A DNA stretch of 32,400 nt from Patescibacteria group bacterium (GTDB taxonomy: Bacteria; Patescibacteriota; Microgenomatia; UBA12405), in NCBI GenBank assembly GCA_018818185.1, contig JAHISL010000025.1, positions 1-32,400 on the forward strand. The letters run 5' to 3'. Positions 10,006 through 24,542 of this stretch are shown here, piece after piece; within the stretch, counting starts at the first letter, position 1, and every line of letters starts with the position of its first letter. The position numbers and the translations under genes are program-made. The notes beneath the pieces were generated by a model, which saw only the letters and a list, made by a program, of their open reading frames with translations, was not told where the DNA came from and made no database searches.

Positions 10006-10417
10006 CTTTTTTACCTCCGAATTTTTTGGCTAAAAAGAAATAAGAAATTGAATAAAGAGTGATTAAAAATAGTGTTAAAAAAGCAAATATAGTTCCTAAA
10101 GATTCTAGGAATAAAAATTCACCTTTTGAAAAAACAGATAAATTACTAAAAGAAGGAATAAGTAAAATAAAAGCTCCAATACCTATAGTCGGACCAAAAA
10201 TAGAATAGGTAAAATCAGCAGCTTTTTCTTGAATAGACAACTCTCTTTCGTCAATAATATTTTTATTACTTAAATGGACTAAAGAAAAAAGAATAATCCC
10301 AGTAAAAATAGAGACTAAGGTTAAAAGATAAAGTTTCAAAAAAACAGAAATAGTAATAATCGAAATAATAAAAAGAATAGCAATAAAGCGAATTTGTTTA
10401 TATTTTTTGATATCCAT
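9995..10417 (-). CDS. DUF2178-like membrane protein
   Basis: Four TM segments, DERELSIQEKAA motif, adjacent to the XRE regulator; start at 10417 (6 nt after TACAAT) or 10423. Confidence 0.75.
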   Translation of the reverse strand: MDIKKYKQIRFIAILFIISIITISVFLKLYLLTLVSIFTGIILFSLVHLSNKNIIDERELSIQEKAADFTYSIFGPTIGIGAFILLIPSFSNLSVFSKGEFLFLESLGTIFAFLTLFLITLYSISYFFLAKKFGGKKDEE

Positions 10418-10419
10418 AA

Positions 10420-10452
10420 ACATATTGTAAAGTACACTTTACAATATGTCAA
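10420..10452 (-). promoter_or_regulatory. Promoter overlapped by a 30-bp palindromic operator
   Basis: TTGACA(10452-10447)-17-TACAAT(10429-10424); acatattgtaaagt-ac-actttacaatatgt at 10420-10449. Confidence 0.85.
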
Positions 10453-10504
10453 GTTTCCTTGTCATTATGAAACTTCTAAAACTGTTCCGTTGTGGTCTGT
10501 TTAG

Positions 10505-10526
10505 GCTCCCCTGCTGGGATACTACT
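10505..10526. other. Degenerate att-like copy of the tRNA-Asn 3' end (distal island boundary)
   Basis: gctcccctgctgggatactac vs gctccccctctaagattcgaa (17017 onward): 14/21 identical, first 7 exact. Confidence 0.55.
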
Positions 10527-10596
10527 CGGATAGAAAAATGGGTAAAAAATTATTTAATGCTCCACGAAATGAACAATTTTAAAACTAGTTATTGTT

Positions 10597-11019
10597 CTAA
10601 CTCGTGAATATCAATTTAGGGTCTACGTACTCACCGCTTTCAAACTGAAGGATGGCATCACCCACCTGAGGTCGGAGATTATGTAGCTTTTTCACACTAT
10701 CCAAATCGTACCAATTACCAATACTATTCGATCCAGTATCATTTTCGCAAGAAAATAAAAAAACAATGTGACCTTTTTTAAAATAAAATATTTTTACAAG
10801 CCTATCAGGCACAACATTAGTTAAACCTGTTTCCTCAGCAATTTCTCTAGTTGCAGCCTCTATAGGTGATTCACCACTTTTTACATGACCAACAACTAAA
10901 GATAGGTCTCCTTTGCTTTTGTTACTATGTAAGTTTGTGGACGGCTCTTCTATTAAGAGTATTTTTTTAGTAACCGGATTATGAATAACGACTGCGATAC
11001 CAATATTATTAATGTCCAT
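10597..11019 (-). CDS. NUDIX hydrolase
   Basis: Nudix box GHVKSGESPIEAATREIAEETGL. Confidence 0.9.
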   Translation of the reverse strand: MDINNIGIAVVIHNPVTKKILLIEEPSTNLHSNKSKGDLSLVVGHVKSGESPIEAATREIAEETGLTNVVPDRLVKIFYFKKGHIVFLFSCENDTGSNSIGNWYDLDSVKKLHNLRPQVGDAILQFESGEYVDPKLIFTS

Positions 11020-11054
11020 ATATACATATTACATCAACAAAGTTTAAGTGTGAT

Positions 11055-11070
11055 GCTCGGATTGTTGAAT
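11055..11070. other. Left attachment junction of the serine-recombinase element
   Basis: GCTC core shared with 17017-17020; TGTTGAAT (11063-11070) is the reverse complement of ATTCAACA (17007-17014), each 4 nt from the central TC. Confidence 0.75.
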
Positions 11071-11217
11071 CAGGTGAGAACCTTTTTCATCGATCAGATT
11101 GTCACTCCCATTCAACCACAAGAAATAGATAAGAGATTCGTAATTAACTACTTTAGAAATCCTACACTGGCCTTAAACATACAATAATACAGTAGCAGAC
11201 TTGTACTAGTACCCTTG

Positions 11218-11610
11218 TTATTCTGGCAACTTACCTATTCCCAATACTGCTTGAGTTATATCTCTTTGGTTTTGTCTGATTTTCTGTGCAACAGCTTCGA
11301 CTTGCTCTTTCGTTAAATCTTTTCCTATTTGTTCTGCTAACCTGTTGGAGGAATTTTTAACCATATCAATTAAAGCTTGTTCTCTGTCCCGTTGAATTTT
11401 CAAGCGAAAATAAGCAATTGAAATAGAAAGCGAAAGTAGTAATACACCAACTACTCCCAACAGTATTTGTCTCTGTTGATTTAATTCGCGCATAAATCCC
11501 CAAAGAATTACCAGGCTTCCAACATAAGTGACTAGTCCAGCAATCCCAAACTCTCTTAGTACTTTTATCAGACTTTCACTAAAGATTGATTTGATAGTGT
11601 CAGGTTTCAT
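11218..11610 (-). CDS. Two-TM membrane protein with coiled-coil tail
   Basis: Two hydrophobic helices; ATGA overlap with the upstream gene. Confidence 0.7.
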   Translation of the reverse strand: MKPDTIKSIFSESLIKVLREFGIAGLVTYVGSLVILWGFMRELNQQRQILLGVVGVLLLSLSISIAYFRLKIQRDREQALIDMVKNSSNRLAEQIGKDLTKEQVEAVAQKIRQNQRDITQAVLGIGKLPE

Positions 11611-12314
11611 TTTTTATCCTCCTTATCCGGCATTTCTTCTTCATACTTATTAGCAATAATATCGCTTTCAACAAAATTAACAGTAAGCTTTATTAATTCC
11701 TTCAAATTTCCAATATCTTTGTTTTCCCATTTCCTATCATAATGTATTTCGTCATTTCCAAGCCAAGCAGCCCTTTTTGCACAAGCTTGTATTCGTTTAT
11801 CGTCAATTGCTGAGATTGCATCAGATAGTTGCATTTTTTTAATTTGTTCAACGGTTTTCACCTTGGTATTTTTTAGATAATCTTTTACTAAAAATTCCAA
11901 CGATTTTCTGTATCCACCACCGGCAATTTCGTCTAATCCAAAATCCTCAGATATTGCCGACTGGTTATATATTCTCGAAAAACGTTGACTAACTTCGTTT
12001 ATCTCGCCGGAAAATTTAATTGGTTCCCAATACTGCGGAGCAAGTGTTCTTTTTAAGAAAAAATAGTCACCCATTCTATCTGGTTTCGTATAAATCCCGG
12101 TATAGTATCTCTTACACTTATTGTTTGGGCATTGAAAAACAGCCTCAACCACCTCGTTATAATCCCAAGCAGCCCCTAATGAGTGACCAATTATAAATTT
12201 TGGTTGTCCTGCTACTCCACAAGCAGCACATTTATCAGGATATTCGTCAAGCTGAACGGATCCTCTGTTTCCACCCTCTAATACAACTGATATTGCGTGT
12301 GTGTCTACAGCCAT
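11607..12314 (-). CDS. DUF4145-domain protein with N-terminal Cys cluster
   Basis: CAAC...CPNNKC; GLDEIAGGGYRKSLEFLVKDY; AAWLGNDEIHY. Confidence 0.8.
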   Translation of the reverse strand: MAVDTHAISVVLEGGNRGSVQLDEYPDKCAACGVAGQPKFIIGHSLGAAWDYNEVVEAVFQCPNNKCKRYYTGIYTKPDRMGDYFFLKRTLAPQYWEPIKFSGEINEVSQRFSRIYNQSAISEDFGLDEIAGGGYRKSLEFLVKDYLKNTKVKTVEQIKKMQLSDAISAIDDKRIQACAKRAAWLGNDEIHYDRKWENKDIGNLKELIKLTVNFVESDIIANKYEEEMPDKEDKK

Positions 12315-12316
12315 AT

Positions 12317-13360
12317 TTATTTTAAGAACGTTTCATTTATTGCCGAAAATTCTGAAACGGCTTTGAAAAAGTTTTCTAACTGTTTATATTCTCTAAAACT
12401 AAAATCATTCTTATATTTATAATAAGGATCGTTGTTAATATATTTTTCATAAAGATAGTAATCCTTACCAGAAGCGATAATAAAAAGTTTTGTCGATAAA
12501 GGAACTAATTGATACAACCTTTGAAGACCGCTACTAATTTTAGTGCTATGTTCAACTTCAAAAGCGTATTTTGGCACCTCGTCCTTAAACCACATAACGT
12601 CAACCTGAGAGACTAATCTCACAATATCGCCACCCAAAAACCTCGTAGGAAGTTCTTTTAGAGATATATAATCTTGGAGTTTTTCCCCATACGCCTCGTT
12701 TGATTTATTTGGGCTAAAAGTATCGTAGCCAAGCAATCTTCCAATTTTTAGAAGTAACATTTCAGCCTCAGCGTGAGCTGTTATTTCATTCTTTTCTTCA
12801 AGATCACTCTCAATTAAGGGTTTATCCTCAGTGACACTGTAATGGCTTAAAAAAGCGTCTGCACTGCCAAACTTATCTAATATGGCCTTATTCCCCTCTT
12901 CGTTCAGAGGCATAAAACCTTGAATTCGATCAAACGAAGGTTCGTATTTTCCAAACTGTTGAATGTCAGACATTGGCATATATATTGGTCTTAAATCCTT
13001 TAAGAAAAAGACACAAGTCCACGGTTCTTCTCCTGTCTTTGGAGGCCACAATGCTAAACCAAGATCTCTACTGTGTTGCTTATAGAGAAGTTTGCCTGCA
13101 TATAAAAATTTTCCTTCTTTTTCATTACCTTCACGGCCTTTGTAGAAAAGTACTAAATCGTCAACTTCCATTTTGTCCCAAGAAGATTTTTTGGCTTCTT
13201 TATTTCCCCAAACAAATATCTTGTCGCTCGGAGCCAAAGTCTTTTTACCAGAGTCGTCTAAAAACGGTTCAACAATTGACTTGTCTACGCCGTTTTCAAT
13301 AGTACTTAAAAAATTCTTATATGACGTTTCGTTTGAACGTGGAGCGAGAAATATCTTCAT
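12317..13360 (-). CDS. EVE/PUA-like domain fused to PD-(D/E)XK restriction-endonuclease-like domain
   Basis: N-term VWG...WDKMEVDDLVLFY...LWP...W.CVFFL; C-term AHAEAE, VDVMW, AFEVEHST..SGLQRL. Confidence 0.65.
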   Translation of the reverse strand: MKIFLAPRSNETSYKNFLSTIENGVDKSIVEPFLDDSGKKTLAPSDKIFVWGNKEAKKSSWDKMEVDDLVLFYKGREGNEKEGKFLYAGKLLYKQHSRDLGLALWPPKTGEEPWTCVFFLKDLRPIYMPMSDIQQFGKYEPSFDRIQGFMPLNEEGNKAILDKFGSADAFLSHYSVTEDKPLIESDLEEKNEITAHAEAEMLLLKIGRLLGYDTFSPNKSNEAYGEKLQDYISLKELPTRFLGGDIVRLVSQVDVMWFKDEVPKYAFEVEHSTKISSGLQRLYQLVPLSTKLFIIASGKDYYLYEKYINNDPYYKYKNDFSFREYKQLENFFKAVSEFSAINETFLK

Positions 13361-13466
13361 AGTCGTATTTTACTCCAATTGTATACGTAAGTGAATAATA
13401 GTTAAGTCCCAACAAATCGATCCTTTTTCTATCTTTCGAAACCGGGAAAAAGAGTAAAATAATACT

Positions 13467-13976
13467 ATGAGTAGTAGTGGCCCAAAGGGAATAAACTGGA
13501 CGGAAGTTTTTCAATTCTATTGTGAAACGATCAATGACAAGTTACCGTCTTACAAAGACGTCGCTAAAAGATTTGGGGTAAGTAAAACCGAAGTCGGTCA
13601 AAAGGCATTGGAAGAGAATTGGATAAATCTTAGACAAGAGTTATACGAAAACGGTAAAACTAAATTTTTAGAGAATAAATCAAACCAAATAGCAGAATCC
13701 GAAACCAGCCAGTTAGACAAATGGAGAGCTATTCAAGATTTGACAGACATTTATCTCGACGAGATCAATAAGGATCCATCACTTAAACAGGTTCATAAAT
13801 TGTATATTGTGTCTAAAATCATTAAGATTGCCATTGAAGGTGAAAGAATAGTTCTTGGATTACCCAACACTGTTCTACCTAATCGATTAACTACTAGAGA
13901 AGAACGTCAAGAATTATCACCAGAACTAATCCAAGAAATTGATAGATTATTTTTAATTAACAAAGCGCTTACTTGA
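13467..13976 (+). CDS. HTH protein resembling phage terminase small subunit
   Basis: NWTEV...Y...SYKDVAKRFGVSKTEVGQKALEENW..LR; C-terminal EGERIVLGLP. Confidence 0.55.
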   Translation: MSSSGPKGINWTEVFQFYCETINDKLPSYKDVAKRFGVSKTEVGQKALEENWINLRQELYENGKTKFLENKSNQIAESETSQLDKWRAIQDLTDIYLDEINKDPSLKQVHKLYIVSKIIKIAIEGERIVLGLPNTVLPNRLTTREERQELSPELIQEIDRLFLINKALT

Positions 13977-15159
13977 TATTGTTTATTTTTATTTGTAAGA
14001 CACCGACTAACTTCATTATGTATTCGTCTAATTCCAACAAATTTGCTTCCTTGAAACTGTCTCTTTTGACTTCATACACTTTATCGTGGGTTACAAAATA
14101 TAAAACAAAGTCGTTGTTTGTTAGAATGCTGGCAAGGGTTCCTTTGAAGTATTCAAACTCTTTATTGTCATAGGCTAAGGCACAAATATCATTTTTTAGT
14201 TTACTAAGCAACTCACCTTGTCTTTCATAAAAGTCTTTATCAACGTGGTTTTTATTAAATACAACGTAAAATATCATTTTTGGCGTTACTCGGCTGTGTA
14301 ATATGCCTTCTACAGTGGATTCCATTTCCCAAAGTGTTTCTACAACTTCTTCTTCCCTTTTAGGGAGAATGGCACCGTGTACTGGTGTACTTCTTTTTTT
14401 ATGCCACGCACTAAGCATTTTCTTTTTATCTGCCACTGACAAAATCCCTTCCGCAGTCATTAAATCAAGTCCTTCTGCTAAAGAATCTAGTAAGCTCTTC
14501 TTGTGGGTATCCTTTAACCTTCCAATAAGTCTATATTTTTCTTCCTTAGTTAAATCTGTCCACTTTTCAATAATAGAACTAAGTTCCTTTACTTTATCTT
14601 CTGAAAGTATTTTGCCACCTTCGTCACCAAGAACCCTCTCGATAATTGACCAAAGTTTAGTAATTCGATCTCCCGGATCTTCATAAGACTCAAATAGTCG
14701 ATACGATCTTAATCCACTTATCAAACGAGCGTTATTGTCTTTTTTAACAGTATCGTACTGCTTTTGTAGAGCTACTGGATCTCTTAATGAAACCGGGATC
14801 TTGTTTGATAATCTATTACTTCCACCAATACCTAGTGCACTTAATTGATAACTACCACTTTTTATACGTATTCCCCTCGAAGTTGTAAGCGATATAAGGT
14901 CAAGAATTGTATTTAACTCCTCTTCATATTTTTGAAATTCTTCGGTCTCTTTTGAAGGTATTTCTTGCACCAAATTACCCTTCTCATTTTTATCTGTTAG
15001 AGTTGCTTCAAAACTAAACGATACCTCTAGTTCGATATCTGATACTTTTTTGAAATTGTATCTATCTACAGAAAAATTCCAACCTTCACTAAAAAAGGGA
15101 TTTGAATTGTCCTCGTCATTTACCAGTTCCACTAATAGGTCTACATTAACGATATTCAT
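13969..15159 (-). CDS. HEPN-like (ApeA/MauJ-type) protein
   Basis: LWSIIE helix and R-x4-H motif (RSTPVHG); likely start MNIVNV at 15159, downstream of TATAAT. Confidence 0.55.
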   Translation of the reverse strand: MNIVNVDLLVELVNDEDNSNPFFSEGWNFSVDRYNFKKVSDIELEVSFSFEATLTDKNEKGNLVQEIPSKETEEFQKYEEELNTILDLISLTTSRGIRIKSGSYQLSALGIGGSNRLSNKIPVSLRDPVALQKQYDTVKKDNNARLISGLRSYRLFESYEDPGDRITKLWSIIERVLGDEGGKILSEDKVKELSSIIEKWTDLTKEEKYRLIGRLKDTHKKSLLDSLAEGLDLMTAEGILSVADKKKMLSAWHKKRSTPVHGAILPKREEEVVETLWEMESTVEGILHSRVTPKMIFYVVFNKNHVDKDFYERQGELLSKLKNDICALAYDNKEFEYFKGTLASILTNNDFVLYFVTHDKVYEVKRDSFKEANLLELDEYIMKLVGVLQIKINNIK

Positions 15160-15213
15160 TATAGGTAAATTATACTGCGATTGAGGTAAAATACGGATAT
15201 AGAGGGTAAAAAA

Positions 15214-15513
15214 ATGAATAATCAATCACCAGCGCAAAATAAATTTATATCGCACTTGTTAAAACGCGATCCTAAACTTGGCGAAAAAGATATTCCACCT
15301 CTAGTAAATAGTTTCAAGCGATTTGTAAAAGTGGTTCAGAAAATCTATACCGAACCCCAAGCCCAAATAATAATCAAAAATAAAAAAAGGATTATTACGA
15401 CAGATATTAAAGAGTTTAAGAAGGTTTTTGACAAAGATAATCCCAAACAAGATTTACTTGATACATTTAGAAAATTTCATAAATCTGTAACCAAAGATAA
15501 ATATGGAAGATAA
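15214..15513 (+). CDS. Small basic hypothetical protein overlapping the recombinase start
   Basis: 99 aa, Lys-rich; 11-nt overlap with 15503. Confidence 0.65.
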   Translation: MNNQSPAQNKFISHLLKRDPKLGEKDIPPLVNSFKRFVKVVQKIYTEPQAQIIIKNKKRIITTDIKEFKKVFDKDNPKQDLLDTFRKFHKSVTKDKYGR

Positions 15514-17029
15514 TGAACCAAAATATAATCGTGTTGTAGCTTATATCCGAAAATCGTCGGAAGATAATAAAGAAGGTGAGGCTAAAAAGCAGTTAAATTC
15601 TCTTGAATATCAAAATGATTTTGTTAAAGAAGCAATAAAGAAATATAAACTTGAACTGGCAGGGCCAATTTTTGAAGACACTAAAACCGGATACGAGGCA
15701 TTCGTGCGCGACGACTTTGCTAAAATGCTCGACTACTTAAAAGACCATAAAGACGAGATCGACGGCATTGTGTGTACTGAAATTAGCCGTCTGGCACGAA
15801 ACTTTGCCGACGGTGGAATGATTCTGTGGTATTTACAAAACGGAACAATTAAAAGAATTTATACTCCCACAAAAGTATTTACTGATTCTTCCGGAGATCA
15901 GTTAATGGTCGCTATTGAATTTGCTATGTCAAAGAAATCAAGCGACGATACGGGATACAGAACGATAGAGGGTATGAAATCAAAAGCAAGGGTAATGAAA
16001 CACCCTGCAAGACCTGCAATACTAGGTTACTTTACCGAAGGAAAAATTGGGCAAAAAAAATGGATTATTGATCCCAAAAAAGGGCCATTAGTTAGACAAG
16101 TCTTTGAACAATTCGCAACAGGAAAATACACTTTTGATCAAATAGCAGATTATGCTTTTAATATCGGACTTAAATCAATTAACAAGAAAACTATTATTGG
16201 AAAAATTTCTAAAAACACTTGGAGAAATAGATTGAGTGACGTTCAATACACAGGTATTTTTGAAAGCGACGGAGAAAGAATTGTAGGTGAATATAAACAT
16301 TTAATAGACACTCCACTTTTTTATCGTGTACAAGAAATTATTACCGACCACGAACACCCAAAAACTACCCACCTAGATTACGCATATTCGGGAATGTTTA
16401 AGTGTGGCCTATGTGGTGGAATGCTTTCAGGAACACACAAGAAAGGAATTACTTATTACCGGTGTGGTAAACGGAAAACCCCTTGTAAAGATATTGCTCG
16501 AATTACTTATATCCCCGAAAAACAACTTGAAGACAGTCTAATGACCGCTTTTGAAAACATAGAAATAGATCAAGATACTTGGAAAGCAGCACGAGAATAT
16601 GTCGCTGAAATAAATCAACCTCAAAAACTCGATATTAAGAAACAAATTCGAATGATAGGAGAAAAGATTTCGGCAGAGCAAAATACCCAAATAAATGTAG
16701 GTAGACGATTTTCAGCGAACGAATATACAAAAATAGATTATGACCGACTTATGGAAGATAGCCGTCGTAAAGAAGCCTCGTATCGAAACACGATTATTAA
16801 ATGTGAGAATATCGTAAACGAACTCGACGAACTTATGTATCAATTCCTCGACAACATTAAATATGTCACTAAAAAGTTGAGACTAGCATTACCAGAGAAC
16901 AAAAGAGAAATGGTTGATATTTTTTGTGAGAACTTGGAGTGGAAAGACGGAAAAGCCCTATGGGACTGGAAGAAACCGTATTTTATAATCGCAAATCGAC
17001 CAAAAAATTCAACAGTGCTCCCCCTCTAA
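15503..17029 (+). CDS. Large serine recombinase (integrase)
   Basis: AYIRKSS catalytic motif, EISRLARN, recombinase domain (ILGY), Zn ribbon CGLCGG...YYRC...C, coiled coil; stop codon lies inside the tRNA antisense. Confidence 0.93.
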   Translation: MEDNEPKYNRVVAYIRKSSEDNKEGEAKKQLNSLEYQNDFVKEAIKKYKLELAGPIFEDTKTGYEAFVRDDFAKMLDYLKDHKDEIDGIVCTEISRLARNFADGGMILWYLQNGTIKRIYTPTKVFTDSSGDQLMVAIEFAMSKKSSDDTGYRTIEGMKSKARVMKHPARPAILGYFTEGKIGQKKWIIDPKKGPLVRQVFEQFATGKYTFDQIADYAFNIGLKSINKKTIIGKISKNTWRNRLSDVQYTGIFESDGERIVGEYKHLIDTPLFYRVQEIITDHEHPKTTHLDYAYSGMFKCGLCGGMLSGTHKKGITYYRCGKRKTPCKDIARITYIPEKQLEDSLMTAFENIEIDQDTWKAAREYVAEINQPQKLDIKKQIRMIGEKISAEQNTQINVGRRFSANEYTKIDYDRLMEDSRRKEASYRNTIIKCENIVNELDELMYQFLDNIKYVTKKLRLALPENKREMVDIFCENLEWKDGKALWDWKKPYFIIANRPKNSTVLPL

Positions 17030-17089
17030 GATTCGAACTTAGGACCAATCGCTTAACAGGCGAGCGCTCTACCACTGAGCTAAGGGGGA
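17018..17089 (-). tRNA. tRNA-Asn(GTT), CCA not encoded
   Basis: TCCCCCT TA GCTC AGTGGTA GAGC G CTCGC CTGTTAA GCGAT TGGTC CTAAG TTCGAAT CTTAG AGGGGGA G; TGcTATAAT upstream near 17133-17141. Confidence 0.95.
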
Positions 17090-17183: not shown

Positions 17184-17432
17184 TCACGAAAACCGTCTCT
17201 TAATGGGGACAATTTTTGCTAATTCAACATGCCAATCACCATCAAGAAACATCGGCTCTGACATCTTGGGACATACAGACACTTCCGCTGTACTCATAGA
17301 TGATAATATTGGCTGACCAAAGTCAAATCGAGTTTTCGGATGTCTAGTATTTAAGACTCTATTGTGAAAATCAATGTCACAATTTCCATAGGGCCTACCG
17401 CATGTATTACAAACATTTTCACCCTTACCCAT
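17184..17432 (-). CDS. Small Cys-containing hypothetical protein
   Basis: CNTC...C...C; last gene of a tightly packed minus-strand run. Confidence 0.6.
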   Translation of the reverse strand: MGKGENVCNTCGRPYGNCDIDFHNRVLNTRHPKTRFDFGQPILSSMSTAEVSVCPKMSEPMFLDGDWHVELAKIVPIKRRFS

Positions 17433-17436
17433 ATTG

Positions 17437-17973
17437 TTATTTTTTCAATAATCTATAATAAAATTTTTTCTTTCCTTTTGCCTTTGCTTCTTTTTTCCTT
17501 CCTCTATTTGTAGATTCCACAAAAGGAAAGCCCTTTTTCCCCACGTTTCCGTCAATTGCAATACAATACGGTGCAGTGAACCTATCATCAGGAACCCCGG
17601 ATCCAGGCCCTTGCACCATCAAAATCCTAAGTCCTTTCTGTGGTATTTCAATGCCTAACACTCTATCAACGCCATTTACCGTGTTACGCAAGGTAATGTC
17701 CACCCTTGCTCCAATTCGGTGAAAATGTTTAACTATTCGTTCTTCCATTAAATTAAAAGTTATACCACTATAATCACATCTCCCACACTTCGGAATCTCT
17801 TCTCCAATATCCGGACACACCAACCCACTCTGCGCTTTTCTAACAGGACATTCCCCCGCCCATACCTCATCTATGGTCCCATGTCTTGAACTCATATTAT
17901 TCAAATGCCCCACCACTTCATCCGCCGTCGATTTTGGTATTGTCACATATCCTTCACGATATCCATAGTTCAT
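17437..17973 (-). CDS. Hypothetical protein with Cys cluster and basic tail
   Basis: CPV...CPD...CGRC; probable start MNYGY at 17973. Confidence 0.65.
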   Translation of the reverse strand: MNYGYREGYVTIPKSTADEVVGHLNNMSSRHGTIDEVWAGECPVRKAQSGLVCPDIGEEIPKCGRCDYSGITFNLMEERIVKHFHRIGARVDITLRNTVNGVDRVLGIEIPQKGLRILMVQGPGSGVPDDRFTAPYCIAIDGNVGKKGFPFVESTNRGRKKEAKAKGKKKFYYRLLKK

Positions 17974-17977
17974 ATAT

Positions 17978-19183
17978 TTATCTTTTTTCAATAAACTTAC
18001 CTTCAACTATTTTTTCGGGAGAGTTTCCAATTTGATCCGGAGATAAAGGCTTACTCGTAATCGAATTAGGTATATCCCCTACAATTCGAGCAAACGCTGC
18101 CTTGGTAGAAGCAAATTCTCTTGCTGAACTTTCGCCCAATATTTTTCTTTGAGACTCAGAAGCCAAAGTCATGATCCCACCCAAAAATTTCGAGGCAGCC
18201 GTATGTGCATTCAACTCCAGGGAAAATGCTGATAACAAGGCCACCTGAGCCGAAGAATATGCCTCAGCCATCAAGGGTTGATTCCCCCACCCAGCCATCA
18301 AAACATTACCCGCAACAGTAATAACCCCAGGCAAGGTCTGTCTTATTCGATAACTTTCCGAAACACTATTAACCATCCTGTCGACCTTCTGTAATTCTTC
18401 AAGGGACATCAAATCTCTCGGGTCAGTTGTATTTGAAAACTTTTTCAATCTTTCTGCCAACTCTTCCAATGCTTTGTTCACACCCGGAACACCTTCTTTA
18501 GTCACTCTTTGTGCTTCTTGAAGTTTACCTTTCAACTCCTCCATTTTTAAAATAACCAACTGGTTATTAGAAGCATTTTTTTCAAACATTTCTCTTGCCT
18601 TAATAGCATTATCTCTCAACTGTGGCATTATTCTTGCCGCCGCCAACCCGTCATTTATTGGTTCACGAATTACTTCCATTCCTGAAATAAACAAAGCCAT
18701 TGTCTTACTTTTTTCTCTAGTTTCTTTATTAAATCTTGCCCTTAATCCCGAAACATCAAGTCCGTTAATCGCCTCCCATAACCCAACGGCCCCTCTTGTC
18801 AAATTACTCAAAAACTGATCATTCATCCATTCTTCCGGCCTATCAACACTCCCCATCTTACCATCACTGGGAAAAAGAGCACTTCTAAATATATTCATCC
18901 CTTGAACCGCTTGTATTTGTGAAAAGGTCGCTAATTCTGCCGCCTGGGCAATTGCCTTAACCGGAATACTCCCTCCCACGCCGCTTTCTGTTGGAATGAT
19001 TCGATTATCACTAAGCCCAACCCCTTTTCCTCTCCTAATTGAATCTTTTAATGGTTTATTTGCACCTATTGTTGACTGAACAAGTTGATATATTTCTGGT
19101 TGTGCAATCTCAATACCCCTATACACTTCATTTTGAATTTGATTTTCCCCTTTTCCACCACTTTCAATTTTGTTTCTTCCCAT
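17978..19183 (-). CDS. Helical/coiled-coil hypothetical protein
   Basis: 401-aa ORF, heptad-rich middle section. Confidence 0.75.
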   Translation of the reverse strand: MGRNKIESGGKGENQIQNEVYRGIEIAQPEIYQLVQSTIGANKPLKDSIRRGKGVGLSDNRIIPTESGVGGSIPVKAIAQAAELATFSQIQAVQGMNIFRSALFPSDGKMGSVDRPEEWMNDQFLSNLTRGAVGLWEAINGLDVSGLRARFNKETREKSKTMALFISGMEVIREPINDGLAAARIMPQLRDNAIKAREMFEKNASNNQLVILKMEELKGKLQEAQRVTKEGVPGVNKALEELAERLKKFSNTTDPRDLMSLEELQKVDRMVNSVSESYRIRQTLPGVITVAGNVLMAGWGNQPLMAEAYSSAQVALLSAFSLELNAHTAASKFLGGIMTLASESQRKILGESSAREFASTKAAFARIVGDIPNSITSKPLSPDQIGNSPEKIVEGKFIEKR

Positions 19184-19188
19184 ATTTT

Positions 19189-20277
19189 TTAATTAAAATT
19201 ATAATTGTTAATTAATTTTTCTAATTCCTCTTGCTCTTTTGCCATAGAAGCAAAACCCTTTTTCCAATTTCTACCTTCTGTCAAAGCACCCAATTGTCTT
19301 TCAACTTTCCTTCCCGCCGTCGCAATTCCTCCAACATGAAACAAATCAACACAATGCGCCAAAAATATTAGTGATCTACCGGGAATAGCATTCTCAGTTA
19401 TCCCTTTCATAATGGCTAGTCTTCCAACCAACATCTGCGATCGTAGGGCCACTGACTTCAAAGCCGATCTACTTCTATTGTTTCTAACTATCTGCTCAGC
19501 CAACCATTTTTCGGGAGAACCATTTTTTCCCTCTTCCAACATAACCTTTTTTGCTTGATCTCGGGATAAAACCGAACTTATCCCCGACAACAACTCTGCT
19601 TCCACCATCGCCTCAACTGAAGCTACAGCCAATTGGTTAATTGCTTCAAAACCTGGCAAATTTACCTGCCACAACACTGGATCAAAAAACAAATCATCCA
19701 ACACTCTGGCAAAACCTTTTTTTTCAGGTCTATATTGCTGAATAGACTCACCAGCTTCACTTTCCCAAAAAACTTGTCTAATTGGAGCCGTATTTATTTC
19801 CACCGCTCTTACGGGACCAAATTCAACATAATCTCCTTCCCAATAATTTTGTTGAGGTAATGAAATATTCTTTGTCAACTCCGCAACCGCCTCTCTAACC
19901 TCTGGTGCAACTTCAGCCAAACTCTTATGCGTTTCGTTCTCTAATGTTCCCCAAATTTCATTATGACCACTAAAATCGACCTCTGGCGGAGCATGATTTA
20001 TTGTTGCCATTTTTACCAAAACAGCTGGAAAATTTGAAGGAGCAATTTCCAACAATGCCTTCTCTGGCGGTTTTTCACTTCTAAATATTTGTTCTTTTAT
20101 TTCTGGTGGCAAATACGCTTCTGGATCATACAGCCATCCGATATCTGCCTTAGTTTCAACAACAACTGGCTCAGGAACAGTAAATAATGACAAACCTCCC
20201 TCTTTAACCTCTGGCAAAGCCACATTATCCGGCATCTGAAACACACCTCCCACATTTCCTTCTTTTGTGTTTGTCAT
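19189..20277 (-). CDS. Helical hypothetical protein
   Basis: 362-aa ORF, 5 nt from the next gene. Confidence 0.75.
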   Translation of the reverse strand: MTNTKEGNVGGVFQMPDNVALPEVKEGGLSLFTVPEPVVVETKADIGWLYDPEAYLPPEIKEQIFRSEKPPEKALLEIAPSNFPAVLVKMATINHAPPEVDFSGHNEIWGTLENETHKSLAEVAPEVREAVAELTKNISLPQQNYWEGDYVEFGPVRAVEINTAPIRQVFWESEAGESIQQYRPEKKGFARVLDDLFFDPVLWQVNLPGFEAINQLAVASVEAMVEAELLSGISSVLSRDQAKKVMLEEGKNGSPEKWLAEQIVRNNRSRSALKSVALRSQMLVGRLAIMKGITENAIPGRSLIFLAHCVDLFHVGGIATAGRKVERQLGALTEGRNWKKGFASMAKEQEELEKLINNYNFN

Positions 20278-24353: not shown

Positions 24354-24542
24354 TTAGTCAGGATCGCCGGCGCCGGCAATCCTCGACAATCCTAATTCTC
24401 TCTCTTGAACTTCAAGAGAGATATCCGATTCTTTGGTTTTTGCTAGCATCTTTTCTCTGCAGCTTTGAAAAAATTTACACCCAGAACAATTATTTAACGG
24501 ACATTGATCTGGTTTTCCAGGAGTTTTATTTTTTGTCATCAT
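24354..24542 (-). CDS. Small Cys-rich protein (C-x4-C-x2-C-x5-C)
   Basis: CPLNNCSGCKFFQSC; ATGA overlap with the upstream ORF. Confidence 0.55.
   Translation of the reverse strand: MMTKNKTPGKPDQCPLNNCSGCKFFQSCREKMLAKTKESDISLEVQERELGLSRIAGAGDPD

Follow-up and report, generated by a model that had tools for sequence, protein, structure and literature searches.

Among described integration systems, the closest precedent for the locus analyzed here, closer than SSV1 or the mycobacteriophage BPs, is that of Mx8, in which the gene of a tyrosine recombinase contains the attachment site attP, so that integration makes IntX from IntP with a new 3' end (PMC6070905, PMC4383910). As summarized in the Mx8 passage of a review, the swap leaves the enzyme active but with changed properties, which sets a precedent for an integrase being modified by such an exchange and not inactivated (PMC6070905). 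Here we describe an integrative element of 5962 bp in a 32,400-nucleotide stretch of DNA from a Patescibacteria group bacterium (GenBank assembly GCA_018818185.1, contig JAHISL010000025.1; hereafter, the window), which sits at the 3' end of a tRNA-Asn gene and encodes a predicted large serine recombinase. Our favored explanation, to which we assign a probability of roughly 0.8, is that attP of this tRNA-Asn element lies in the 3' end of the integrase gene (int) and that integration swaps the tail of the enzyme. The primary papers on IntP and IntX of Mx8 are said to be those by Tojo in 1996 and by Magrini in 1999.

As in Mx8, attP of the window element lies inside the coding sequence of int, and integration gives the gene a new 3' end. 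Unlike Int of Mx8, a tyrosine recombinase of unrelated fold and chemistry, the enzyme of the window is a serine recombinase; furthermore, the element has a core of the 2-bp type without long identity between att sites, and the swapped part is an add-on tail past the last domain. The system is thus Mx8-like in layout but not a member of the Mx8 type. SSV1-type integrases also contain attP within int, the gene being partitioned upon integration into a tRNA gene, and in the relevant passage of the Islander paper, Mx8 and SSV are the only integrases named as extending across attP (PMC4383910). Unlike in SSV1, only the 42 terminal codons beyond the folded domains are lost from the window gene, and no partition of the catalytic and DNA-binding parts is seen. 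In SSV1, the Int of which is a tyrosine recombinase, the split yields two substantial gene parts. In the mycobacteriophage BPs, the integrase of which is reportedly a tyrosine recombinase too, attP is said to lie inside the repressor gene, with integration shortening the product and altering its behavior; in contrast, the gene crossed by attP of the window is that of the recombinase itself.

The enzyme resembles A118/LI, phiC31, Bxb1 and SPbeta SprA in the combination of Resolvase and Recombinase domains with a zinc ribbon that carries a coiled coil, and in its short dyad-like att sites. To our knowledge, attP of these systems is located outside int and their targets are mostly protein-coding genes; the window element differs in having attP inside int, the 3' end of tRNA-Asn as the target, and a B arm that is not conserved between hosts. 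The word 'tRNA' is absent from the main text of a survey of 6,207 large serine recombinases (Durrant 2022). Tycheposons, in the account given by their describers, are small cargo elements stacked at tRNA genes, where newcomers push older ones away, and 910 of 937 tycheposons and tRNA islands use tyrosine recombinases, leaving partial tRNA repeats (10.1101/2020.12.28.424599). The window element, compared here with tycheposons by description and not by homology, differs from them in leaving no tRNA duplication and only a 5-bp core. Our literature search, which covered papers without their supplements, found none on a serine integrase gene spanning its own attP or on a tRNA-Asn-targeting family.

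Boundaries of the element

The window is the entire 32.4-kb contig of an assembly that comprises 762 kb in 112 contigs and is 90% complete; the nearest records of its genes come from Roizmanbacteria, Woesebacteria, Shapirobacteria, Dojkabacteria and 'Patescibacteria group', which assigns the host to the Patescibacteria. The features that define the element are as follows.

11054..11058, plus strand: attL core TGCTC, equal to 17016-17020, with the B arm (host DNA) on its left side
11059..11085, plus strand: P' arm of attP, about 27 bp, with TTGAA 7-11 bp from the central TC; doubles as tail codons 1-9
11059..11187, plus strand: stranded int 3' terminus (42 codons, then a stop), lacking a start codon inside the element and in frame with codon 506 after excision
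15503..17029, plus strand: predicted large serine recombinase in its prophage form, 508 amino acids (aa) (open reading frame, Pfam, fold model)
16992..17018, plus strand: P arm of attP, inside int codons ~497-506
17016..17020, plus strand: attR core TGCTC, with the dyad center TC at 17019-17020, within the Leu506 codon
17017..17089, minus strand: tRNA-Asn(GTT), found by ARAGORN; forms the B' arm

The pentamer TGCTC is present at 11054-11058 and again at 17016-17020, and the element of 5962 bp consists of positions 11059-17015 plus one copy of this core. The host gene, the 3' end of which accommodates the element, is the single tRNA-Asn detected in the assembly, and its terminal sequence (...GAGCA) is the same whether the element is present or absent. 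The length of ~27 bp for the P' arm is taken from the footprint of phiC31 integrase, for which the source gives arm positions 4-15 and 17-27 in its footprinting results (10.1101/2025.05.02.651858). We consider this anatomy, that is, the att sites, the boundaries and the layout of the tail, to be nearly certain.

The sequence-only reading of the window had predicted an empty site, and a contig in the groundwater metagenome run X1 breaks at exactly that position: 11053 is joined to 17016, so that 5962 bp are skipped, with 5 ambiguous letters (TGCTC). Every word sampled from the stretch is present in run X1, probably its source metagenome, so that this run is not independent with respect to presence. 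The left flank (10300-11052) has little or no cover in run X1, which we attribute to listing or filtering. In the same run, the element is found on a unitig of 6017 nt that covers 11029-17045 with zero differences and breaks 30 nt outside either junction, positions that would match branching of a k=31 graph at the junctions. The depths of the empty-site contig (6.3) and of the element unitig (11.3) sum to 17.6, close to the depth of the right flank, 18.6. Together, the empty-site contig and the element unitig therefore indicate that occupied and empty sites coexist in the sample. The empty-site joint has a 25-letter side at a likeness of 90, within the range (fewer than 30 letters at a likeness below 95) in which joints may stem from other organisms; 25 letters is the length expected of such an assembly bubble.

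Comparison with relatives leads to the same boundary. In a Roizmanbacteria chromosome (CP066689.1, locus L017) that encodes an 86% identical integrase, homology with the window begins exactly at GCTC, with no relationship between the two sequences further left. Likewise, homology between L017 and another locus, L097, begins at GCTC, the left ends being 94% identical, with unrelated flanks and differing tRNA-Asn sequences. A synteny-based hunt for empty sites in 60 related genomes yielded none, the tRNA alone being conserved, and the NUDIX neighbor adjoins tRNA-Asn in 0 of the 14 relatives' loci searched (L003-L016).

It had also been claimed that joining 17020 to 11059 creates a dyad centered on TC, as is indeed the case: the 12 nt to the left of TC (17019-20) and the 12 nt from 11059 form an inverted repeat at 10 of 12 positions, with the perfect 8-mer ATTCAACA / TGTTGAAT within it. 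Taken alone, this dyad is no more than chance, because a scan of the window for TC with a mirrored 14-mer detected a second 10/14 match at 24398. The boundaries rest on three other lines, namely the empty site in run X1, the start of homology at GCTC and the CTC register of the tails described below. We take TC as the center of attP because TTGAA is found at the same distance, 7-11 bp, on both arms in all 16 distinct elements with a window-type tail (positions 8 and 9 match in 16/16), and crossover most likely occurs at the TC of codon Leu506. The 5-bp shared core and the dyad around a central dinucleotide are those of a large serine recombinase att site. A dyad search for the left ends of relatives was non-discriminating, most of the true ends scoring 5-8/14, and tail homology was used instead.

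The integrase and its stranded tail

In agreement with the initial reading, the recombinase open reading frame (ORF; 15503-17029, 508 aa) ends in the antisense strand of tRNA-Asn(GTT), with which its last 13 nt overlap: codons 1-506 are encoded by the element and the final two (PL) are read from the antisense tRNA, giving the terminus ...NSTVL-PL*. Pfam matches include Resolvase (PF00239, E 5.2e-16, residues 11-163), Recombinase (PF07508, E 1.4e-8) and Zn_ribbon_recom (PF13408, E 6.2e-9). The catalytic residues R16, S18, R69, R96 and R99 are invariant or almost so in alignments A1 and A3, and the zinc-ribbon cysteines C301, C304, C321 and C328 are invariant in alignment A1. An AlphaFold2 model built from 90 sequences, with a mean predicted local distance difference test (pLDDT) value of 83.5, gives the following arrangement.

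Residues to ~145: catalytic domain
Residues 150-164: helix E
Residues 176-282: recombinase domain
Residues 300-353 and 464-497: zinc ribbon
Residues 357-461: coiled coil, between zinc-ribbon strands 307-321 and 475-489 (block pLDDT 81-92)
Residues 498-508: unstructured end after the last helix, 491-497 (pLDDT below 50 at 505-508)

The coiled-coil insertion in the zinc ribbon that is expected of large serine recombinases is present in the model. With Resolvase, Recombinase, a four-cysteine zinc ribbon and this predicted coiled coil, the protein can be assigned to the large serine recombinases. According to the model, all canonical domains would be complete by residue ~497, upstream of the crossover, so that the swap would affect only the add-on tail; given that the crossover falls in a predicted disordered linker after the last domain, both isoforms would retain the full canonical domain set. 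When Int 1-506 and the 42-aa tail were modeled as two chains of one complex, the score was 0.19 (mark 0.32).

When the frame is continued past Leu506 into 11059-11187, it stays open for 42 codons and then stops, and these 42 codons replace PL, so that the claimed product lengths, 548 aa (506+42) in the circle and 508 aa when integrated, are both recovered; the full-length 548-aa protein is one that we infer. A tail conserved in homologous elements had been anticipated as well. Using tail peptides as tblastn queries, with the register set by protein alignment alone, we found in many loci a related segment 5.2-8 kb upstream of the integrase and on the same strand, which includes the predicted start of L, six residues and RT. 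CTC immediately precedes the first tail codon in all 37 tail matches, and GCTC does so in 33 of them. The consensus is R-x-L-K-x-V-R-T-Y-F-I-x-Q-I-L-T-P, with the start variant R-x-L-x-x-V-R-T-[YF]-F.

In the 16 distinct elements with a window-type tail, the tail frame is invariably open for 41-46 codons, and the other five frames contain stops in most of them. Entropy at codon positions 1, 2 and 3 is 0.96, 0.64 and 1.36, respectively, and in codons 10-33, which lie beyond the ~27-bp P' arm, it is 1.54 at position 3 compared to 0.68 at position 2. The ratio of nonsynonymous to synonymous change (pN/pS) is in the range of 0.2-0.47, with a mean of 0.47 overall and of 0.44 for codons 10-33; in single pairs, pS and pN are 0.87 and 0.20 for the window and L017, and 0.36 and 0.08 for L017 and L099. 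These patterns show that the 42 codons are a true coding sequence under purifying selection, which implies that the tail matters. Since the first base of the element is also that of the segment, and since the flanks are host-specific, the segment would be translatable only as the end of int, either after excision or beside another element.

Right at and after the tail stop, at 11185..11215, there is a conserved motif of ~25-30 nt that contains the palindrome GTACTAGTAC. It is identical in L017 and, by eye on the alignment, recognizable in about 14 of the 16 elements, L097 and L099 among them; homology between elements stops right after it. The motif could be a terminator or an operator for the helix-turn-helix (HTH) protein encoded in the element. 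The distal part of the tail (window 11119-11148) and the C-terminus of that 169-aa protein (13932-13961) both carry a stretch resembling P-x-E-[IV]-D-x-x-[FY]-x-[IL]-N, as do those of L017, L097, L099 and L024; a relationship between the two was rejected as not significant (hhalign probability 5%, P 0.007, 16 columns). The tails end in small or hydrophobic residues and in this resemble ssrA tags, which invites the speculation that the tail is a degron; ARAGORN found 45 tRNAs and no transfer-messenger RNA (tmRNA) in the 90%-complete assembly.

Distribution of the family

A census of genome and metagenome collections gave 51 loci with an integrase of this family, the window and 50 others, without de-duplication and with several pairs being the same sequence in two collections; 50 of these loci are scorable. 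The 3' end of the integrase frame was classified as follows.

33 loci: antisense tRNA-Asn(GTT), in the same register
1 locus: intron-bearing tRNA-Asn
3 loci: tRNAs with an intron and a different anticodon label, probably but not surely the same gene
2 loci: stop inside the T-arm at the end of the locus
1 locus: masked by N
2 loci (L022, L109): truncated tRNA-like remnant
8 loci: long non-tRNA tail
1 locus: cut at the end of the locus

The proposal of a tRNA-targeting large serine recombinase with predictable att sites is thus borne out by 33 of the 50 scorable loci, and the prophage-form ORF is intact in all 50. The endings of the 'PRVDSNHEP' type that terminate many database proteins are the antisense T-arm read in the integrase frame. 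The family is patchy: of 400 other genomes sampled from the phylum, 2 contained it at E <= 1e-60, and a scan of viral contigs did not find it. Except for the last bases of the tRNA itself, the B arms on the host side are unrelated between hosts. We infer that the target is determined mainly by the tRNA half-site and that the attR of a resident element can serve an incoming one, which would put the newest element beside the tRNA.

In several relatives, the tRNA-Asn gene is interrupted at the anticodon loop by ~190-250 bp (G001:C4, G011:C11, G023:C8; L025:11518+, L027:11071+, L100:4374+). With introns allowed, ARAGORN reports inserts of 191, 227 and 192 nt, the anticodon sometimes being mislabeled; these may be group I-type tRNA introns in Candidate Phyla Radiation (CPR) bacteria.

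Tandem arrays and hybrid tails

In some loci, two or three elements, each with a different serine recombinase, stand in tandem at one tRNA-Asn (L102:655-15019, L037:1-10505, L024:1-7777), L024 looking like a three-element array. In such arrays, the upstream integrase is fused in frame to the tail of the next element. In L102 and L037, an integrase of the family is fused to a different tail, and it is a second recombinase, only 21-23% identical and located 6.9 or 9.8 kb beyond, whose frame enters tRNA-Asn; hence, this tail type belongs to the second recombinase family. Conversely, a profile of the window-type tail retrieved three recombinases of other lineages with this tail (P0122, P0123, P0125) along with several fragments. 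Other lineages (L030, L027 and the second recombinase family among them) carry their own tail types at the same place, the left ends. On the basis of sequence comparison, the architecture appears to be common to several recombinase lineages, all of which target tRNA-Asn in Patescibacteria.

Some loci show further combinations. In L027:4378-4590 (= L120:4816-5030), two segments of different tail types lie back to back, each after CTC, and look like stranded remnants of earlier integrations. In P0124, the tail is followed by a short spacer and a second W-L junction into a tRNA. In the same-genus relatives L004 (G009:C40) and L009 (G015:C3), the second, distant recombinase family reads into tRNA-Asn in the same register, so that within the genus several lineages compete for this site.

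Proposed mechanism and alternative explanations

Large serine recombinases cleave at the central dinucleotide and act through subunit rotation, and the chemistry assumed here follows this scheme; enzymes of this class recombine attP with attB and require a directionality factor for excision. The recombinase of the element would have inserted it at the 3' end of the one tRNA-Asn gene detected. Through integration, the last 42 codons would come to lie at the far end of the element, the prophage gene would stop after two antisense-tRNA codons (508 aa), and excision, or a neighbor in a tandem array, would restore a tail (548 aa with the native one). In the weakest step of this scheme, the tail would give the enzyme of the excised state a property absent from the prophage enzyme, either attP x attB activity or a different lifetime. 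In this way, as with IntP and IntX of Mx8, the integrase would be under feedback from the physical state of the element that encodes it. We regard the case for a state-specific regulatory role of the tail as evenly balanced, and it seems doubtful that this role is directionality as such. Similarly doubtful is the idea that the tail is a built-in state sensor, in which the full-length enzyme, made from excised DNA only, would be integration-proficient or short-lived and the tail-less form would act differently on attL x attR; gene topology, in addition to a separate directionality factor, would thus help determine when and in which direction recombination occurs, and tandem arrays would also generate chimeric integrases bearing the tails of neighbors.

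How serine integrases stay unidirectional is an active question, and these enzymes are major genome-engineering tools. If the proposal is true, this would be a natural family in which integration rewrites the C-terminus of the integrase, a testable control layer independent of a recombination directionality factor, with both isoforms and all four att sites readable directly from sequence. The family targets the highly conserved 3' end of tRNA-Asn and apparently tolerates any other half-site, which is unusual for these enzymes and helps predict landing sites; it also illustrates the movement of cargo, some of it restriction-like, among ultra-small CPR genomes, in which few other mobile elements are known. 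As regards annotation, one layout and not different genes would account for the 'long' and 'short' recombinases and for the headless tail ORFs in databases.

Several observations weigh against the tail-swap explanation or parts of it. Heterologous tails, borrowed from the neighboring element of an array, are found in 8 of the 50 scorable loci, and in run X5 an integrase 3' end that is 98% identical to that of the window continues into a different tail type (frame read by eye). Because heterologous tails are common and this hybrid exists, the comparison argues that a precise match between integrase and tail may not be essential. The match between P and P' arms is not improved by their being cognate (6.75 of 14, vs 6.91 for non-cognate pairs), tails of different lineages are mutually unalignable, and tail codons 1-9, which form the P' arm, are under constraint as DNA too. 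The contiguous native 548-aa form was not found in the protein database, where the long forms are fusions to other tail types or recombinases of other lineages with a window-type tail. Finally, the empty-site joint, with its 25-letter side, could reflect the genome of a close relative instead of excision in this strain, and the circle junction was not seen among the metagenome joints, which represent assembled contigs only, and contigs drop rare variants.

In a rival explanation, the layout is real and the tail is functionally neutral, such that in a compact element the ORF simply runs to the next stop and the conservation acts on the DNA, first as the P' arm and then as a terminator or operator. 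The complete difference of tail types between lineages, the tolerance of foreign tails in 8/50 loci and in run X5, the coincidence of the first 9 codons with the P' arm, the conserved non-coding motif after the stop, and the location of all catalytic and DNA-binding domains upstream of the crossover all speak for neutrality. However, codons 10-33 lie outside the arm and still show the entropy contrast between positions 3 and 2 (1.54 vs 0.68) and a pN/pS of 0.44, close pairs have a pS several times greater than pN, and 16 of 16 tails stay open for 41-46 codons in AT-rich DNA in which the other frames are closed; we consider a neutral tail unlikely. More improbable still is an inactivation akin to that of SSV1, where integration would leave a dead enzyme of 508 aa and a trapped element, the empty site being an ancestral polymorphism and not the result of excision. 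This would account for the missing circle junction (in contigs only), and the conserved tail may indeed be required for activity; yet, the truncated protein retains the catalytic domain, the recombinase domain, the zinc ribbon and the coiled coil, the prophage-form ORFs are intact in 50 of 50 scorable loci, which is unexpected of a dead gene, and the near-identical left ends in different hosts (94% between L017 and L097) indicate recent mobility. Scarcely credible is the notion that the frame at 11059-11187 is a separate small gene or an assembly artefact, and not a part of int. An ATG at 10981 does open a 68-aa ORF across the junction in the window, but this codon belongs to host DNA, and the other 15 distinct elements have unrelated flanks; since the element itself starts with the tail, no start codon or ribosome-binding site upstream of it within the element is possible, and the conserved frame always directly follows CTC without a conserved start codon. 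The junctions, for their part, are confirmed by run X1, which was assembled independently, and by over 30 further records.

Other genes of the element and its neighborhood

Apart from int, the element contains a conserved module and variable cargo.

11218..13360, minus strand: variable cargo, three ORFs of 130, 235 and 347 aa
13467..13976, plus strand: conserved 169-aa protein with an N-terminal HTH and a marginal match to the Phage_terminase small subunit, below the Pfam cut-off
13969..15225, minus strand: cargo ORF of 418 aa that matched no family
15214..15513, plus strand: conserved 99-aa ORF, overlapping the start of int

The 235-aa cargo ORF matches phrog_1305, a DNA-binding protein (E 3.9e-33), and the 347-aa ORF has a weak match to REase_II (E 2e-4). 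The 169-aa HTH protein, homologs of which are found in L017, L024, L097-L100 and other loci, is a candidate regulator or directionality factor. The 99-aa ORF, a candidate accessory or directionality factor, is located upstream of int at 38-45% identity in 11 of the 14 loci examined. The module of these two genes and int is common to the relatives; the cargo varies and is different in L017. To the right of the tRNA, at 17184-20277, there are four successive minus-strand ORFs of 82, 189, 401 and 362 aa without a Pfam match, and the GC skew is strongly negative across the whole window.

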